Shown here piece after piece: positions 16,725-54,085 of a DNA stretch of 64,000 nt (its first letter is position 1; the number at the start of each line of letters is the position of its first letter). The position numbers and the translations under genes were made by a program. Location of the stretch: positions 17,698 to 81,697 of IMG/VR virus record IMGVR_UViG_3300025678_000009; one strand, given 5' to 3'. The DNA comes from a virus. Taxonomy: Duplodnaviria; Caudoviricetes. Under the pieces are notes generated by a model. The model searched no databases, had not been told where the DNA came from, and saw only the letters and a list, made by a program, of their open reading frames with translations.

Positions 16725-16870
16725 AAGTAAAGTTTCTAAACATGTGTTCAAGAAAAGATAACGGGACACTATTTTTTGCAATCCTGCCAACAATAACTAT
16801 AGCATCTAATAAAAATCAAAATTATTTGTATTTTGCTTGGTTAAATTATTTAATCGTAATAGAGATATAA
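16721..16870 (+). CDS. 49-aa hypothetical protein
   Basis: ATGA overlap with the glycosyltransferase stop; translated by hand, not in ORF track. Confidence 0.45.
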   Translation: MKVKFLNMCSRKDNGTLFFAILPTITIASNKNQNYLYFAWLNYLIVIEI

Positions 16871-16910
16871 ATTTTAAAGAAACACAAATATGTCAAACGA
16901 AGAACAAAAC

Positions 16911-16940
16911 GGCTTTTTTTGCCAATACATTGTTAGCAGC
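16911..16940 (+). repeat. attC-like site A (right arm only)
   Basis: GTTAGCAGC at 16932 is the exact complement of GCTGCTAAC at 17151. Confidence 0.6.
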
Positions 16941-16956
16941 AGTAACGGATTTAAAA

Positions 16957-17145
16957 ATGGAACATTCAAAACAAGAAAAAGAAATTTACGAATTAGCAGA
17001 ACTTTTGATGCAGTCTGAAAACTTAGAAGCAAGTGCAACTATCCTTCGTGATTTTGCTGAAAAATGTTACCAAGAAGGTGCAATAGATGCTCAAAATGAT
17101 GCGGCAAAAGAAATACGTGAACACTATGTAGAAGGTGGTCGGTAG
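16957..17145 (+). CDS. cassette 1 gene, hypothetical
   Basis: internal ATG 16957; upstream ATG 16890 is in frame only if the T7 run at 16914-16920 were T6. Confidence 0.6.
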   Translation: MEHSKQEKEIYELAELLMQSENLEASATILRDFAEKCYQEGAIDAQNDAAKEIREHYVEGGR

Positions 17146-17150
17146 TTATT

Positions 17151-17236
17151 GCTGCTAACGGGATGCAGCTATACGCAGTTGTGTGTAGGATTTGTGCGGT
17201 GGGAAAATTGCGTATAGGTGCTGTTATATGAAGTAG
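17151..17236 (+). repeat. attC-like site B
   Basis: TAAC GGGAT GCAGCTATACGCAGTT ... AATTGCGTATAGGTGC T GTTA. Confidence 0.8.
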
Positions 17237-17324
17237 GGATTATTTAGCAGAAACTTCATTTGGAACACGAAAATAAATTTAAAATAAAAGCCTTGGGCGG
17301 GCTTCGTAAAACCCAATAAATAAA

Positions 17325-17612
17325 ATGGATAAATTATCTGACGCACCATTAGAGTCAATGGTTGCACCAATACAAAGAGAGCCTAAAATGGGCAAGGTTT
17401 ACATCGGAACAAAAGTAATCCGTGCAGAACCTATGAGTAATGAAGCGTGGCTACGTTCACAAAACAAATGGCAGGAAGGACAAGAAACTGCTGGTGATGG
17501 CTATAAAGTTCAATACGAAGATGGTTACTTATCTTGGTCGCCTAAGCACGTTTTTGAACGCTGTTATCGTGAGCTTACGCCACAAGAAGTAGGAATGGTA
17601 ATCGAGTATTAA
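17325..17612 (+). CDS. cassette 2 gene, conserved phage domain (YIGTK...GYKVxYEDGYxSWSPKxVFE)
   Basis: recognisable widespread phage motif, function unknown. Confidence 0.75.
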   Translation: MDKLSDAPLESMVAPIQREPKMGKVYIGTKVIRAEPMSNEAWLRSQNKWQEGQETAGDGYKVQYEDGYLSWSPKHVFERCYRELTPQEVGMVIEY

Positions 17613-17678
17613 TTATCAGTGCGGTGGGGCTTTTATTTTAAATTTCTAAACGAAATGCTTAATCGAAGCTCTACCGTC

Positions 17679-17821
17679 CTATTTCATATAACGGTAAACG
17701 GCTATGCTTAGTGCCGATTTTGAAAGACTAAGCTAATTTTAAACAACAAATTTTTATATGGAAAATACAGGATTATTTAACGCAGAAGGTAAGGCATTGA
17801 GCATAGCCGATGTTATGGCTA
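17679..17821 (+). repeat. attC-like site C
   Basis: TAAC GGTAAA CGGCTATGCTTAGTGCC ... GGCATTGAGCATAGCCG AT GTTA. Confidence 0.8.
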
Positions 17822-17967
17822 TGTTGCCAACCGCAATGATTAACAGAGTTGAAGTGATTGACGAAAATGGCAGGAGCTACGTTAATTGGAAACCAGCAAA
17901 CAGAACCGAATTACAGGTGCAAGATAATGGCAGAACGCTAAAAGTATTCGTGTCGCAAGGCAATTAG
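17758..17967 (+). CDS. cassette 3 gene, first 18 codons inside site C
   Basis: RVEVIDENGRSYVNW...LQVQDNGRTLKVFV small phage family. Confidence 0.7.
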   Translation: MENTGLFNAEGKALSIADVMAMLPTAMINRVEVIDENGRSYVNWKPANRTELQVQDNGRTLKVFVSQGN

Positions 17968-18078
17968 CCATAACGTTTTGCGGCTTGGTGTCTGTTATTT
18001 TGCCTTGCAGACATTTCAAGTTTTAGATAAATTTAATAGGTAAAATAATAGCACTAAGCCGCTGTTAGTGGCTGGTGC
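17965..18078 (+). repeat. attC-like site D
   Basis: TAAC GTTTT GCGGCTTGGTG(T)CTGTTATTTTGCC ... GGTAAAATAATAGCACTAAGCCGC T GTTA; one extrahelical T. Confidence 0.85.
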
Positions 18079-18094
18079 GGTAAATTAAACTAAA

Positions 18095-18361
18095 ATGAAA
18101 CAGATAGACAAAACTTTCTATTCTCTTTGCGAAGAAATAGACGATTTAAAAGAAGCAGTTGAATATTGGAAAACAATGTATGAAACTGAAAGAGCAACTA
18201 ACAATAAGATGCTTAATGATAATTTAGAAACTGCGAAACAAGGCGTTGCAAATGCTTTAAGGTTTGCTCTTTCGGTTTCAGATGACGAAAATGGAAACTT
18301 GGTTATTAGTAAAGAGAATAGAAAAGATTTAGCAGAAAATTGGATTGGAAGCGGTAAGTAG
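18095..18361 (+). CDS. cassette 4 gene, coiled-coil hypothetical
   Basis: 88-aa ORF ending at the AAC box of site E. Confidence 0.7.
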   Translation: MKQIDKTFYSLCEEIDDLKEAVEYWKTMYETERATNNKMLNDNLETAKQGVANALRFALSVSDDENGNLVISKENRKDLAENWIGSGK

Positions 18362-18509
18362 CACTTGCCACTAACGGTTCACGGCTTGTTGTCAGGCGGG
18401 GATTTAGAACCACAAATTTTCAATAAACAATAAAACTTAATAAAATGAGCGAAATTTCAAACAACCACGAAACCGCCAATGGCACAAAACCCGTGTTATC
18501 GGCTGTTTT
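18361..18509 (+). repeat. attC-like site E
   Basis: TAAC GGTTC ACGGCTTGTTGTCAGGCGG ... CCGCCAATGGCACAAAACCCGT GTTA. Confidence 0.75.
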
Positions 18510-18843
18510 TCTTCATCAGAAAATCGAAAAGTTAATCCCATTTATAAGTGAGGAATTTATCACTTATCCACTTTTGGAGGAAGGCAAATACATACCTTTC
18601 TTAAAATGCTGGCAAAAAGCAGATACGGAAAACAAATGTACTCGGTTGTCAAATAGATTAAATAAGCACTTTGAAAAAACAGGTTATGAAATTTCATTTA
18701 TTGGCAAAGAACATAGAAGCGTTATTCACGAATTTTACCTTTACCCAAAGTGGAAAGAATTAAAAAACGGTTCTTATAAATTTGTCAAAAAAGATTGGTC
18801 TATTGAGGAAATGTTGGATTTGTTGGGTTATGTCCTAAAATAG
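18445..18843 (+). CDS. cassette 5 gene, first 17 codons inside site E
   Basis: 132-aa ORF; no other Met until near the C-terminus. Confidence 0.7.
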   Translation: MSEISNNHETANGTKPVLSAVFLHQKIEKLIPFISEEFITYPLLEEGKYIPFLKCWQKADTENKCTRLSNRLNKHFEKTGYEISFIGKEHRSVIHEFYLYPKWKELKNGSYKFVKKDWSIEEMLDLLGYVLK

Positions 18844-18882
18844 CCGATAACGGTATCGGGCTTGGCGCATGTATTTTTGGCG
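18837..18882 (+). repeat. attC-like site F (left arm only)
   Basis: AAAATAGCCGATAAC GGTAT CGGGCTTGGCG; no complementary right arm found. Confidence 0.65.
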
Positions 18883-19072
18883 ATTTTGAAACGATAAATT
18901 TTAAATAAAATGGAAACAGCAAGAGAATTTACATTAAGGAAGTACCCTGAATTATGGGGTAAAAATCACAACGCAGGTGATATTATCAGAGCAATGGAAG
19001 AATATGCGAATTGGTAGAACGCTTCTATCATTGTCGATAGCACACTGAAAATATTTTTTTAATAAATAACAA

Positions 19073-19723
19073 ATGAATTATAAAATATACTCTATAGTTT
19101 ATGATGAAAATCAATTGCACGAATATGAAAAATATGATAATTCTCACATAAAGAGTTATGAAGATAAAAGCTATTTATTTGAATATAATTGTCTTATAGA
19201 TATTCTTGATAATTTTAATATAAATGAAGATTATTTAGGCATTTTTTCACACAAATTTCCATTCAAAACAGGATTATTCAAAAAAAAGTTATATTGGCTT
19301 TTAGAGAATAATCCTGATTTTGATATTTATGGACTATGTCCTCAACATGTTTTAAAGGGACAATATTTGGATTTTACTGAGAAAATGCATCCAGGATTTA
19401 AAAAAATATTTTATTCTTTATGTAAAGATTTAAACTTAAAAGTAGAAGAACCTAAATATGTTATTTATAGTAATTTTATGATAATGAAAACTTTCATTTA
19501 TAAAGAATTTGTAAACGAAATTATTAAGCCTGCTATTTATTTATTAGAAACTAAATATAAAGAAGAAGCTTGGAAAAATAGTAATTATAATGGTTTGGAA
19601 AAATCTAAACTAAAAATGTATACAGGGCTTGATTATTACCCTATGATAACCTTTATATTAGAACGACTTATCTCAATCTTTGTTTTAAATAATCCTAAAT
19701 ATTCTTTTAAAAATCTTATTTAA
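19073..19723 (+). CDS. glycosyltransferase-associated protein (DUF4422-like)
   Basis: YLGIFSHKF, YSNFMIMK and FILERLIS motifs. Confidence 0.55.
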   Translation: MNYKIYSIVYDENQLHEYEKYDNSHIKSYEDKSYLFEYNCLIDILDNFNINEDYLGIFSHKFPFKTGLFKKKLYWLLENNPDFDIYGLCPQHVLKGQYLDFTEKMHPGFKKIFYSLCKDLNLKVEEPKYVIYSNFMIMKTFIYKEFVNEIIKPAIYLLETKYKEEAWKNSNYNGLEKSKLKMYTGLDYYPMITFILERLISIFVLNNPKYSFKNLI

Positions 19724-19782: not shown

Positions 19783-20805
19783 ATGAGTAAGAAAAAATGG
19801 ACAAATGAAAAAATAGAATGGTTAAAACAAAATTATGAAAATAAATCTATATCAAATTATGATATTGTGAAATATTTAAATATTGACTGGATAACAATAA
19901 CTAAAAAAGCATCTCTTTTAAATCTAAAAAGAAAATTTAGAGAAAATTCTAAGTTATTTAATTTTAATACTACTATATGTGATGATTATAAAACAGGTAA
20001 AAGTATACCTAAATTAGCAATTGAATATAATTGTTCTAAAGATAGCATAAGACAAATTCTTATTAAAAATAACATTAATAGAAGATCTGCCCTAGAAAAT
20101 AAAAGACAATTCTCTTACGATAAAAATTATTTTGAAAAAATTGATTCAAAAGATAAAGCCTATTTTTTAGGTTTATTATATGCTGATGGGAACGTGTTTG
20201 CTAAAACAGGATCTGTTCAATTATCTCTTCAAGAAAAAGATGGTTATATTTTAGAAAGATTTAAGGAATATATTAATTATGAAGGAAATCTCAAATATAA
20301 AAATATAAAAGCAAATAAAAAAAATTCACAGAATATGTGGCTTTTTAGAATAACTAGTATAGAACTATGCAAACAATTAATAAAATTAGGTTGTGTTCCA
20401 AGAAAATCCCTTATTTTAACTTTTCCAACAGAAGAACAAGTTCCAAAAGAATTTCAATCTCATTTTATTAGAGGGTTTTTTGACGGAGATGGGTGTATTT
20501 ATATCAGCAATAAAAGCATAAGTTCATCTTTCACATCAACAAAAGAATTTTTGCAGGAAGTACAAAAAATTTTAATCAAAGAAGTTTCTTTAAATCTAAC
20601 AAAATTAACTCGTAAAAAAGCAAATAAAAATACTTATAGTTTCAATATAAGTGGATTTTACCCCTTAAAACGTTTATATGAATATTTATATAAAGATTGT
20701 GATGATTTGTATTTAGAAAGAAAAAAAGAAAAAATCCATGAATTTACTCCACAAAGAAAGGAAAGAAAAACTTCTGAAAAATATAAAATGAGTTTAATTG
20801 TTTAG
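19783..20805 (+). CDS. free-standing LAGLIDADG homing endonuclease
   Basis: YFLGLLYADG and FIRGFFDGDG. Confidence 0.9.
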   Translation: MSKKKWTNEKIEWLKQNYENKSISNYDIVKYLNIDWITITKKASLLNLKRKFRENSKLFNFNTTICDDYKTGKSIPKLAIEYNCSKDSIRQILIKNNINRRSALENKRQFSYDKNYFEKIDSKDKAYFLGLLYADGNVFAKTGSVQLSLQEKDGYILERFKEYINYEGNLKYKNIKANKKNSQNMWLFRITSIELCKQLIKLGCVPRKSLILTFPTEEQVPKEFQSHFIRGFFDGDGCIYISNKSISSSFTSTKEFLQEVQKILIKEVSLNLTKLTRKKANKNTYSFNISGFYPLKRLYEYLYKDCDDLYLERKKEKIHEFTPQRKERKTSEKYKMSLIV

Positions 20806-25412: not shown

Positions 25413-25772
25413 ATGAACACAACAATCAATGTAATACCTAAAAAAGAAAGAATTAAAGTATATGAACGTGCTTTAGAAATAATAGAAAATGAAGAAGATG
25501 TATATGAATTAGGAAAAGCTTATGGATTATGCCTTTTGTTAAGATGCATAGATTCTAATTTGAATTCATACTTAGCAACGTATGATTTTAGAGGAATTTA
25601 TTGGCATCATAACGAAACTCCAGATTTATATCCAGAGTTTAAAAGATATTATAACTGTGAACCAAGAAAGTTTATAGAATTATATGAATCTAACAGAGAT
25701 GTTTGGAGAAGAGTAGTTCTAAGATTGATTTTAGAAAAAATGGGTGTAGATACAATTAAATTAGATGAATGA
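25413..25772 (+). CDS. hypothetical protein
   Basis: 119-aa ORF. Confidence 0.65.
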   Translation: MNTTINVIPKKERIKVYERALEIIENEEDVYELGKAYGLCLLLRCIDSNLNSYLATYDFRGIYWHHNETPDLYPEFKRYYNCEPRKFIELYESNRDVWRRVVLRLILEKMGVDTIKLDE

Positions 25773-26812
25773 TGAATTTTAGAGAACAAGTGCAAAAAGA
25801 AGCAAGTGAAACTTTATTAAAATTTGATTGTGGTACAGCTAATGTAGCAATGAGGCTTGGTAAAACAGTTTTAGGTCTCAAAATAGCATCAAATTTTAAT
25901 AAAGTTCTTGTTTCTTATCCTATAGATGGAATTAAAAAAGGTTGGGTATCTGATGCTGAAGAATTTGGATTCGATATTTCTAACATCACTTTTACAACAC
26001 ATCTTAGTTTATCCAAACATAATTTATCTCAATTTGATTGTATTATCTTGGATGAATTGCATGATATCTCTATTAATAATTGGAACTATATTGCATTATC
26101 CACCTATAAACGATTATATGGATTGACAGCAACTCCTCCTAATAGAGGTGAAAAGAAATCATATATGAATATGTATTGTCCTGTCAGATATACAAAAACT
26201 ATGGATGAAACTACAGGAATAACTAATAAAGATTATGAAATTATAGTACATCTTGTAAAACCAAGTGAAAAAAGAGATATTCCCTTAAAATCAGGTAAAT
26301 TTTGGAGTGAAAAAGCTCAAATTGATTTTTATACAGCTAAATATCAATCTACTAAACAATTCTCAATGATGTTAATGCTCATTAGAGCTATTCAAAATTC
26401 TAAAACTAAGTTTGAATATCTTAAAAAACTTGCAAAAAGTTTAGATAGAGGATTAATATTTGTAGAATCAATTGAACAATGTAATAGTTTACCTTATCCA
26501 AGTGTACATAGTAAAAATTCTGAATCTGAATATAATTTAGAGCAATTCAAACAAGGAAATATACCTATTTTATCATCTATAGGGCAATTAAAAGCAGGTA
26601 TAACATTTAAAAATTTGAATACTTGTATAATTTTACATTGTTATAGTAGTAATAATAAAGCTATCCAAAAGATAGGAAGAGCCTTAAATTATGTAGATGG
26701 AGAAAAAGCTAATATTCATATATTATGTTTAGATAATACAATAGATATTGATTGGTGTAAAAAAGGATTATCAGATTTAGAACAAACAAAAATAAAATGG
26801 ATTAAAGTATGA
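25769..26812 (+). CDS. superfamily 2 helicase
   Basis: MRLGKT, ILDELH, GLTATP and QKIGRAL. Confidence 0.85.
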   Translation: MMNFREQVQKEASETLLKFDCGTANVAMRLGKTVLGLKIASNFNKVLVSYPIDGIKKGWVSDAEEFGFDISNITFTTHLSLSKHNLSQFDCIILDELHDISINNWNYIALSTYKRLYGLTATPPNRGEKKSYMNMYCPVRYTKTMDETTGITNKDYEIIVHLVKPSEKRDIPLKSGKFWSEKAQIDFYTAKYQSTKQFSMMLMLIRAIQNSKTKFEYLKKLAKSLDRGLIFVESIEQCNSLPYPSVHSKNSESEYNLEQFKQGNIPILSSIGQLKAGITFKNLNTCIILHCYSSNNKAIQKIGRALNYVDGEKANIHILCLDNTIDIDWCKKGLSDLEQTKIKWIKV

Positions 26813-53029: not shown

Positions 53030-54085
53030 ATGAAAATTTGTGGAATATATAAAATAACTTCTCCTTCTGGTCGAATTTATATTGGACAAAGTATTGATAT
53101 ACAAAAAAGATGGAATCAATATAAATATAATAGTTGTAAATCCCAAACCAAATTATATAACTCACTCAAAAAGTATGGATGGGAAAATCATAAATTTGAA
53201 ATAATAGAAGAATGTAGTAAAGAAGAACTTTCCAACAGAGAAAAGTTCTGGGAAAGTACTATAGAGAAAAAATGTCTACTAAACATTATAGAATGTGGTA
53301 AAACTCCTCCTAAAAATAACAAACAATCATTTATTGAAAGATATGGGGCAAAAGAAGGTATTAAAAAATGGAATAGTTATATAAACAATAAATCTATAAA
53401 GGCTTCTGGTAAAATAGCATGGAATAAAGGAAAGACTGGAAACCAAAGTCATATGTATGGAATTATAGTTAAAGAAAATTCCAAAATAAAACAAGTACAA
53501 AATTCAAAATATAATAAATTATATCAATATGATAAAGAAGGAAATTTTATTAAAGAGTGGGAAAGAATATCAATTGCAAAAAAGGAATTGAATATCTCTA
53601 TAAACTGCACAACTAATTTAGAAAAAATAAAATATTCTGGAGGGTATATATGGTTTTCAGAAAAACATAAATGCTTAATAGTAGATTTAAAGAAGTTTAT
53701 TGATTTATCTAAAATAAAACCTAAAAGAGTTTTTAATTCCTATATTCTAAGTGAAATGCAAAACAGAATGAGAAAAATTGCGAAAAATAAAGAATACCAT
53801 GAAAAAGCTATCTTTAATAGGGAAAGTAATTTATCTAATGAAGATAAACTTAGAAGAATAGAATTTGCAAAAACTCTATACTTAAAAAGTAATCTACAGA
53901 AATCTATTTTACAGTATGATTTAGATGGTAATTTTATCAAAAAATGGTCTTCTATAACTGAGGCTGCTAAAACTATTGATAGTATAAATTTTAAATCTAT
54001 TATACCAAAAATAATAATGGTAGCTAAAGGTAAAAGAAATAAAACGAGAGGTTTTAAATGGTGCTATGAAAAAATGGAAATATAA
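53030..54085 (+). CDS. GIY-YIG homing endonuclease with NUMOD repeats
   Basis: GIYKITSPSGRIYIGQS and two LYQYDxxGNFIKxW modules. Confidence 0.9.
   Translation: MKICGIYKITSPSGRIYIGQSIDIQKRWNQYKYNSCKSQTKLYNSLKKYGWENHKFEIIEECSKEELSNREKFWESTIEKKCLLNIIECGKTPPKNNKQSFIERYGAKEGIKKWNSYINNKSIKASGKIAWNKGKTGNQSHMYGIIVKENSKIKQVQNSKYNKLYQYDKEGNFIKEWERISIAKKELNISINCTTNLEKIKYSGGYIWFSEKHKCLIVDLKKFIDLSKIKPKRVFNSYILSEMQNRMRKIAKNKEYHEKAIFNRESNLSNEDKLRRIEFAKTLYLKSNLQKSILQYDLDGNFIKKWSSITEAAKTIDSINFKSIIPKIIMVAKGKRNKTRGFKWCYEKMEI

Follow-up and report, generated by a model that had tools for sequence, protein, structure and literature searches.

The DNA considered here, referred to as the window, is a stretch of 64,000 nucleotides (nt) from a tailed phage (Caudoviricetes), positions 17,698 to 81,697 of the IMG/VR virus record IMGVR_UViG_3300025678_000009; the source record is 81.7 kb long and ~42% complete as estimated with CheckV, which implies about 190 kb for the full genome. 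The phage genome has a GC content of 25% and encodes rIIA/rIIB, a DNA polymerase, a ribonucleotide reductase and homing endonucleases, with a T4-like replication module. Between ~16.87 and 19.05 kb of the window the GC content climbs to 0.34-0.39 compared with ~0.25 elsewhere in the phage, an enrichment already seen in a first reading of the sequence alone (the original prediction), and this block of ~2.2 kb holds six small units with four complete TAAC...GTTA hairpin sites (B-E) and two half sites (A and F). We consider the block to be a genuine cassette array of the TAAC/GTTA-hairpin family, with a probability of about 0.9. The integron-like character proposed in the original prediction is right in kind, wrong in geometry and probably wrong in enzyme; the array is an orphan member of a widespread, barely described integron variant in Bacteroidota and their phages. 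Its parts, from left to right in window coordinates, are given below with their open reading frames (ORFs), predicted protein lengths in amino acids (aa) and bit scores for R1, the covariance model of the sites.

16871-16931, + strand: half site A, an A-rich loop remnant and a right arm ending in ...TTTGCCAATACATT before the GTT at 16932; TAAC and left arm are missing; the GC-rich block begins here
16932-17159, + strand: body of cassette 1 (C1), with 5' box GTTAGCAGCAGTAAC and 3' box ...GCTGCTAAC
16957-17145, + strand: C1 ORF, 62 aa, no family
17160-17692, + strand: cassette 2 (C2), with hairpin B (AAC 17157 to GTT 17225) and boxes at 17223-17237 and 17678-17692
17147-17237: R1 match to hairpin B, 57.7 bits
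17325-17612, + strand: C2 ORF, 95 aa, phrog_9467 (PHROG match, E 3.6e-16)
17693-17974, + strand: cassette 3 (C3), with hairpin C (AAC 17690 to GTT 17814) and 3' box ...TAGCCATAAC
17680-17826: R1 match to hairpin C, 58.5 bits
17758 or 17816 to 17967, + strand: C3 ORF, about 50-69 aa, phrog_10600
17975-18375, + strand: cassette 4 (C4), with hairpin D (AAC 17972 to GTT 18066) and 3' box ...GCCACTAAC
17962-18078: R1 match to hairpin D, 80.6 bits
18095-18361, + strand: C4 ORF, 88 aa
18376-18851, + strand: cassette 5 (C5), with hairpin E (AAC 18373 to GTT 18497) and 3' box AAAATAGCCGATAAC
18363-18509: R1 match to hairpin E, 62.2 bits
18445 (start codon, inside the hairpin E loop) to 18843, + strand: C5 ORF, 132 aa
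18852-19020, + strand: degenerate cassette 6 (C6), with half site F, which consists of a spacer and the left arm CGGGCTTGGCGCATG and lacks both the right arm and the GTTA box
18910-19017, + strand: C6 ORF, 35 aa
19010-19020, + strand: terminal 3' box of C6, ATTGGTAGAAC, the array end
19021-19056, + strand: post-array remnant, GCTTC and a small palindrome; the phage backbone resumes here

The original prediction had the array start and finish in the middle of a site and contain five genes. The left end stands, since site A lacks its left arm (the arm that is left resembles the right arms of other sites, ...TTTTGCCAAACCCGT-GTTA, and R1 does not match this half site). Half site F is indeed without a right arm, but because a degenerate sixth unit with the 3' box ATTGGTAGAAC comes after it, the array ends at the AAC of 19010-19020 and not within F. 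The array is partly decayed, as seen in the half sites A and F, the degenerate sixth unit and the C5 start codon borrowed from the loop.

The complete sites follow a common order of TAAC, a 4-6 nt spacer starting with G, an imperfect stem of 15-20 bp, a loop, the return stem, 1-2 nt and GTTA. Across 73 phage sites TAAC and GTTA are invariant or nearly so, a mismatch at stem positions 4-5 appears by eye to be conserved, and position 11 of the outer stem is a fixed G.T pair (5' box GTTAKNNGCWG, 3' box ATTGCNNMTAAC). The loops are A-rich, vary in length from 5 to 145 nt and often, in 47 of 73 cases, contain the start codon of the gene. In an alignment of twelve sites from the window and two other contigs, double compensatory changes are found in 11 of 15 stem pairs; the observed covariation score was reached by none of 500 shuffles, and slid alignments used as controls scored much lower. 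Simple hairpin and box scanners produced many chance matches in the AT-rich backbone, and R1, built on this alignment, was used instead. Sites B-E score 57.7-80.6 bits, with four window sites in the training set; phage and bacterial sites independent of that set reach as much as 70 bits. Over the whole 81.7-kb record, that is the window and the remaining 17.7 kb, R1 has no match outside the block; in other phage contigs it finds more than 70 sites, every one in gene-sense orientation. The sites are of attC type in the sense that they are imperfect hairpins between inverse AAC and GTT cores, and if they are counted as such, four complete sites within 1.4 kb in a record without a tyrosine recombinase form a cluster of attC sites lacking an integrase (CALIN).

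The second hallmark of the array, which the original prediction had correctly identified, is that the 5' box of each unit pairs with its own 3' box. The five window pairs are confirmed: 16932-16946 with 17145-17159 in C1 (15 nt, 93% complementary), 17223-17237 with 17678-17692 in C2 (93%), 17812 with 17974 in C3 (10/10 in the core), 18064-18078 with 18361-18375 in C4 (87%) and 18495-18509 with 18837-18851 in C5 (93%). They were recovered as the inverted repeats I13, I12, I18 and I16 plus the C3 core, and the hairpin stems as I14, I10 and I19. For a wider test, the 12 bases after each GTT were compared with the reverse complement of the 12 before the next AAC between neighbouring R1 sites; the box positions are set by the hairpins, and the pairing test therefore has no search freedom. 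In the window 11, 8 and 10 of 12 bases match the unit's own box, and 5, 4 and 5 match the arm beside it. For 53 intervals in ~20 arrays the means are 7.9/12 (own box) and 4.45/12 (adjacent arm), with a permutation null of 4.45 +/- 0.21. The boxes of C5 keep their pairing via compensatory changes in three lineages, namely GTTATCGGCTG with ...AGCCGATAAC in the window, GTTATAGGTTG with ...AACCTATAAC in contig L002 and GTTGTGCGT with ACGCACAAC in contig L025.

Comparisons with other phages show where such units begin and end. C4 recurs in contig L017, where 17971 to 18388, which spans hairpin D, the C4 gene and the TAAC of the next site (E), is shared at 93% identity between flanks that are unrelated on both sides. 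At least 11 other contigs share, at 91-97% identity, the methyltransferase cassette of a 76-kb contig (G001); in all of them homology extends from the TAAC preceding the upstream hairpin as far as the TAAC that follows the gene, and the neighbours differ each time. Homologues of C5 are present in L001, L002, L003, L022, L025 and L027, and the copies in L001, L002, L003 and L022 terminate at ...ATAAC; the 3' tail of C2 (17623-17694) recurs in L002 and ends at ...CATATAAC. Homology never extends into the downstream hairpin, and the upstream one is included in the methyltransferase, C4 and (more diverged) L002 C5 comparisons. Other arrays likewise end at AAC without a following hairpin (L037/L039, L041, LR756500 and L152/L147/L181/L167), in agreement with the window box at 19010-19020. 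Since homology runs from TAAC to TAAC and arrays end at AAC, the cassette consists of a hairpin and the gene downstream of it. Judging by these sequence comparisons, the exchange point is TAAC on the gene-sense strand and not G|TT on the + strand. The prediction that the cassettes would be found elsewhere with different neighbours has thus been borne out, although with boundaries at TAAC; its order of a gene followed by its own hairpin does not hold, and the cassette coordinates that it gave are off by one hairpin.

One C5 copy deserves separate mention. In L001:3890-4440 (IMGVR_UViG_3300033069_001069, 37.8 kb, 100% complete) a lone C5 cassette with 94% aa identity sits between two genes of a phage that is unrelated to the window phage and probably recoded, as its ORFs have many in-frame TGA codons. 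The insert begins within the hairpin loop, ends at ...CCGATAAC and is flanked by a direct target duplication of ~62 bp (AAATCAATAATTTTC...CCAACAGA), each copy of which is preceded by AAC; the duplication, whose origin is unexplained, supplies the cassette gene with the start of the host gene. In addition, a 74-kb phage (G007, 90% complete) carries two arrays of opposite polarity near its contig ends (L113:5609-7871 on the + strand and L114:6257-11870 on the - strand).

The unit boundaries bear directly on whether the block is a fragment of a classical integron, i.e. a CALIN in which each gene is followed by its own attC, crossover takes place at G|TT on the + strand, the bottom strand is antisense to the gene and an IntI-type integrase does the work. 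The inverse AAC...GTT cores, the imperfect hairpins and the complementarity of a unit's own ends are exactly those of integron cassettes, and HattCI called a site of the same family in Polaribacter phage P12002L an attC. Homology that stops before the downstream hairpin and takes in the upstream one (methyltransferase, C4 and L002 C5), arrays that finish at AAC and an excess of G.T pairs on the sense strand all contradict this arrangement, as do the failure of the P12002L site with IntI1 and the recombinase profiles described below, which makes a classical integron highly improbable here.

Mispaired stem positions reveal which strand folds. The 73 phage sites contain 135 G.T versus 49 A.C stem cells on the sense strand, 33 of the latter coming from one conserved column, and the excess of G.T over A.C identifies the sense strand as the folded one. 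In 37 bacterial chromosomal sites, whose genes lie on the opposite strand, the site strand holds 59 G.T versus 25 A.C; the bias thus stays with the site strand despite antisense genes, which argues that the fold is a property of the DNA strand and not of the mRNA. It is hardly credible, then, that the sites are purely regulatory RNA hairpins (acting in processing, stability or translation control) in immobile units that are shared by common descent. Frequent G.U-type pairs on the sense strand would suit such a role, and with start codons in so many of the loops the stems would flank translation starts in the mRNA. However, the units are shared among unrelated phages with unrelated neighbours, including the one with in-frame TGA codons, the bacterial genes run antisense to sites that keep their G.T bias, and Rfam has no family that matches the sites, returning spurious hairpin matches only.

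Gene orientation differs between the two settings. ORFs in phage arrays are sense to the sites in 32 cases and antisense in one, whereas chromosomal arrays show the canonical integron direction (50 ORFs of at least 90 aa antisense versus 10 sense). In integrons, attC recombination takes place on the 'bottom' strand, with cleavage in the 5' ...AA|C box of that strand. If, by analogy, the gene-sense strand of the phages is read as the 'bottom' strand, the observed boundaries would match the prediction of the integron mechanism; the G|TT rule holds in phages only with the minus strand as 'top', i.e. with genes antisense to the canonical direction.

Sequencing runs give an impression of how the locus varies. 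One activated-sludge run, probably the source, contains 90% of the stretch, and 23 runs from 17 other studies, mostly of wastewater or sludge, contain about a fifth of it. Logan contigs of four runs (X1, X2, X3 and X5 below) were placed on the stretch; as these are assemblies and not reads, they demonstrate that the following forms exist, and do not show frequencies or circles. In the source-like run, one contig lacks C2 and C3, with 17155 joined directly to 17971 and five letters of ambiguity at TAAC(G), and another joins 17228 to 17970, leaving an empty unit of hairpin B followed by GTTATAAC. C1, whose right end is at 17159/17160 in three runs, has a depth of ~88x against a backbone depth of 17-20x, and the unit (16919-17160) sits in other contexts in runs X1 and X3. 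Other inserts are found at high depth (up to 130x versus 14x for the C4 ORF) inside a 'shell' of C4, which comprises hairpin D, the 5' leader as far as the start codon, and the final 20 nt with the 3' box. In many contigs of runs X1, X2 and X5 sequence other than that of C4 lies between 18089-18102 and 18345-18358, so that different genes appear to make use of one cassette shell. A contig of run X5 (depth 3.5) has a C6-like unit between F-type hairpins with a joint of 19008 to 18847, which may be a tandem arrangement or a circle. In phage relatives (runs X2, X3 and X5) the match stops at ~16726-16740 and resumes at ~19001-19069, and relatives from other studies diverge over the entire interval of about 16740-19050. 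On the evidence of these assembled sequences, the pattern looks like turnover in place. The suggestion that the array was captured as a block becomes doubtful in view of C1 joined to site D without C2 and C3, and of relatives that differ over ~16740-19050. No relatives of the downstream gene (19073-19723) were found in IMG/VR, and a clean empty-site comparison is therefore impossible.

The nearest phage analogue is the promoter-stem-loop (PeSL) cassettes of T4-type phages, in which promoter and terminator stem-loop motifs recombine by homology (Arbiol et al. 2010, PMC2839356). As in the window, small non-essential phage ORFs in hyperplastic regions are bounded by stem-loops and shuffled between relatives, with mini-circles possible. 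Applied to the array, the hairpins would be regulatory, and general homologous or microhomology recombination at TAACG, CGGCTTGG or GTTA would suffice. That T4-type phages shuffle small ORFs and make mini-circles through such repeats (PMC2839356) gives this idea some weight, as do the rIIA/rIIB genes and T4-like replication module of the window phage and the lack of a recombinase in most array-bearing phage records. Nevertheless we regard it as unlikely: the breakpoints are fixed at TAAC and not scattered over the conserved stems, and the cassette-specific compensating boxes and the conserved G.T pair would serve no role in homologous exchange. A search of the loops for promoters was also negative on the sense strand, with the Bacteroidota -7 motif TAnnTTTG, the sole motif tested, found there in none of 73 loops (and antisense in seven), and the sequence has no T run after the stems. 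Furthermore, the strict geometry and the Xer-like tyrosine recombinase genes that accompany related arrays favour a dedicated enzyme.

No such gene resides in the record. The original prediction had noted the lack of a tyrosine recombinase in the window, and a PF00589 search extends this to the whole 81.7-kb record; comparison of the record with a phage Xer-like protein identified neither a gene nor a remnant, including downstream of 19020. With no recombinase in the record, any mobility of the array would have to depend on an enzyme acting in trans. The search for an IntI- or XerC-like gene that had been proposed thus draws a blank in the record, but it reveals Xer/IntI-like recombinases beside arrays of Bacteroidota and of other phages. 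Several bacterial arrays adjoin a tyrosine recombinase of 377-430 aa (G014:C43, G024:C64 at 760 nt from a site, Lacibacter L137 and several G012 contigs) whose best NCBIfam match is TIGR02249, 'integron integrase'. One such enzyme scores 223 bits against a cut-off of 265 and a second array-linked recombinase 154 bits, the model's insertion region 182-237 being left unmatched in both, and no genome searched with TIGR02249 has a match above its curated cut-off. IMG/VR was searched with a profile of five array-linked recombinases, which returned 80 loci; R1 sites are present in nine of these, 28 in total, each of them upstream of the recombinase gene and sharing its strand. In these phages the gene is located directly downstream of the array and encodes an enzyme of 269-298 aa, L147:3631-4437 being an example of 269 aa, with XerA (NF040815) as best match at 206-208 bits (cut-off 220). 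This succession would correspond to that of an integron read along the bottom strand, i.e. sites, insertion point and integrase. The family linked to arrays is Xer-like and devoid of the IntI insertion, which speaks against the integron integrase of the original prediction.

Three of these phage loci (L152:7940-7995, L147:3585-3632 and L181:3437-3480) have 45-70 nt without a hairpin between the terminal TAAC and the start codon of the recombinase; the motif AATCAATTAGTTACATAA shared in this gap (AATCAATCACTTATATG in L181) could be the equivalent of attI. Viral contigs were also searched with two single proteins, the G007 integrase and the L130 recombinase, which yielded nothing new. The G007 integrase is unrelated to the array-linked family and probably an ordinary phage integrase.

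A different class of enzyme could be envisaged, namely an IS200/IS605-type HUH transposase (TnpA) that moves the units in trans as 'peel and paste' single-strand elements. Such enzymes cut beside hairpins and insert 3' of short targets of the TAAC kind, and the units begin 3' of TAAC, end in TAAC and fold on the sense strand; moreover, the two records of array-bearing phages with a completeness of at least 90% (G007 and G009) have complete tnpA and tnpB elements near their arrays, and TnpB genes are found near C5 homologues (L019 and L027). The elements in question, each with a divergent tnpA Y1 transposase and a tnpB, occupy L112:5136-6799 (G009) and L113:3700-5338 (G007), a few kb from the arrays. 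We nonetheless judge this very unlikely. PF01797 was not found in the window's record, in G000, G001 or G006, or in the 462-kb LR756500; the insertion sequence copies look like ordinary self-contained insertions; and the consistent partner of the arrays is the tyrosine recombinase. IS200/IS605 ends have a hairpin at both ends, whereas the units here have a single hairpin, at the 5' end.

A mechanism in which a tyrosine recombinase acts on a folded single strand is likely for the array, with its chemistry and the identity of the enzyme drawn by analogy with integrons. On the + strand, each cassette would read as the TAAC| of the preceding unit, the spacer, the stem-loop, 1-2 nt, GTTA with a box of ~10 nt, the gene and the complementary box ending in TAAC|. 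In an excised circle the two boxes of a unit would flank the hairpin and pair together, giving one long folded site on the gene-sense strand. The recombinase would then bind this folded strand and, as in integrons, cut the 5' TAAC at AA|C, and strand exchange with another such site or with the array end would allow units to be excised, inserted and reordered. The enzyme may come in trans from the host or a co-infecting phage, or be encoded in the 58% of the phage's own genome that is not in the record.

It is important to point out that several observations weigh against this picture. Canonical attC sites have a spacer of ~5x6, while the internal loop here is asymmetric (4-6 and 1-2 nt). Left boundaries are less clean than right ones, with L001 and site A beginning inside the loop, and recombination is deduced from joints in assembled contigs, none having been directly observed. 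Many arrays have no recombinase nearby, including that of the 462-kb LR756500; an Xer-like recombinase was not found in this genome, in G001 or in the 100%-complete G002 and G009. The 81.7-kb record holds neither a recombinase gene nor a remnant, and the array may be a fossil. The recombinases that do accompany arrays lack the IntI-specific insertion, which has been reported as essential for integron function (Smyshlyaev et al. 2021, PMC8138268). P12002L_attC1, the only site of the family tested experimentally, was not recombined by IntI1 (Qi et al. 2023, PMC9892861).

The site family extends into bacterial chromosomes, and the idea of a cassette pool common to Bacteroidota phages and hosts agrees both with this and with the finding of shared units in phages that are not related. 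Fifteen stretches of bacterial assemblies contain an exact 22-nt hairpin arm, 11 of them from Bacteroidota, including the complete chromosome of Lacibacter sp. MH-610; all 15 contain R1 sites, mostly several each. Among 61 sampled genomes of one Bacteroidota family, R1 sites are present in at least 21. A bacterial array headed by an IntI/Xer-like recombinase was observed in a Chitinophagales metagenome-assembled genome (L130:112-8880, G014:C43), in which the recombinase gene occupies L130:7750-8880 on the minus strand; the array's layout is similar to that of rAID-1, and its cargo includes a pair of RloB and AAA_21 genes, likely an anti-phage system, and duplicated proteins with sorting tails of the type IX secretion system. 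The Lacibacter chromosome has oppositely oriented site clusters ~45 kb apart (at 3.3228 Mb and 3.366-3.369 Mb), which may mark either end of a prophage.

Among known systems, integrons and CALINs share with the window array mostly single-gene units, imperfect hairpins with inverse AAC/GTT cores, self-complementary unit ends, one fixed crossover triplet and a strand-specific fold, and orphan arrays without integrase exist among them. Unlike in integrons, genes of phage arrays are encoded on the folded, recombinogenic strand with the hairpin before its gene, the spacer loop is asymmetric, the R stems of 10-15 bp have a fixed G.T pair and the associated enzymes lack the IntI-specific insertion. 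A survey of 10,705 phage genomes reported 17 CALINs, with CALINs of virulent phages among them and one in Polaribacter phage P12002L (Qi et al. 2023, PMC9892861); of six sites, P12002L_attC1 alone was not recombined by IntI1, with no verified recombinants. According to the primer table of that study its sequence is TAACGG..CGGCTA...GTTAGG, the same design as in the window, and on phage P12002L R1 gives weak clustered matches between methyltransferase genes. The rAID-1 arrays of gut Bacteroidales comprise an XerD-like recombinase (BF9343_RS08045), co-directional genes and integron-like repeats (Ross et al. 2019; bioRxiv 10.1101/471110). The Chitinophagales arrays (L130 and L143) are likened to them by layout; rAID-1 is chromosomal, carries immunity genes and has repeats that, in the text available to us, are not described as TAAC/GTTA hairpins, whereas the window has a phage array with inverted genes and no recombinase. 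PeSL cassettes differ from window-type arrays, which have TAAC-fixed breakpoints, cassette-specific boxes, no promoter motif in the loop and, in related arrays, a tyrosine recombinase partner.

Integrons are the textbook platform for gene capture and are regarded as almost absent from Bacteroidota and rare in phages; IntegronFinder 2.0 reported a single complete integron in Bacteroidetes. Published precedent for a phage inverted-cassette system is thin: in the full-text literature we found no paper on inverted phage cassettes with an Xer-type recombinase, which is not proof that none exists. Sites of the present family, in comparison, were found in dozens of contigs from uncultured phages and in one third of the genomes sampled from a single Bacteroidota family. 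The chances are roughly even that Bacteroidota and their phages run a large, essentially undescribed counterpart of integrons with small Xer-type recombinases without the IntI insertion, in which phages keep 'inverted' cassettes and the window represents an orphan library served in trans. If so, the inverted class would have its gene on the folded strand and its translation start inside the recombination hairpin, and virulent and giant phages would trade early and anti-defence genes, such as DNA methyltransferases, among themselves and with host arrays, a dedicated phage route for the exchange of accessory and anti-restriction genes. Should an Xer-type enzyme recombine the folded sites, the IntI insertion would be no prerequisite for single-strand hairpin recombination, and an origin of integrons from Xer-like ancestors would become testable. 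For the window alone the finding is modest, since this member is recombinase-less and partly decayed.

Other features of the window were recorded alongside the array. A LAGLIDADG homing endonuclease gene (19783-20805) is situated 760 nt downstream of it, and a GIY-YIG homing endonuclease gene occupies 53030-54085; both look free-standing, and no link to the cassettes was found for either. A near-perfect inverted repeat of 16 nt (TTTATTAAAATTTGAT) with AAC/GTT-like ends at 25810-25912, within the ORF 25769-26812, is not matched by R1 and is therefore probably unrelated to the array sites. The truncated ends of the block (19021 onward and 16871-16931) were considered as the two halves of one hairpin opened in its loop, and by eye they are not complementary. 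Finally, a perfect 18-nt inverted repeat (AAATTTAAAATAAAAGCC and its complement, 17275-17292 and 17628-17645) brackets the ORF inside C2; the outer shell of C2 is present without the ORF in L002, and C2 may thus be a gene nested in an older, ORF-less unit.

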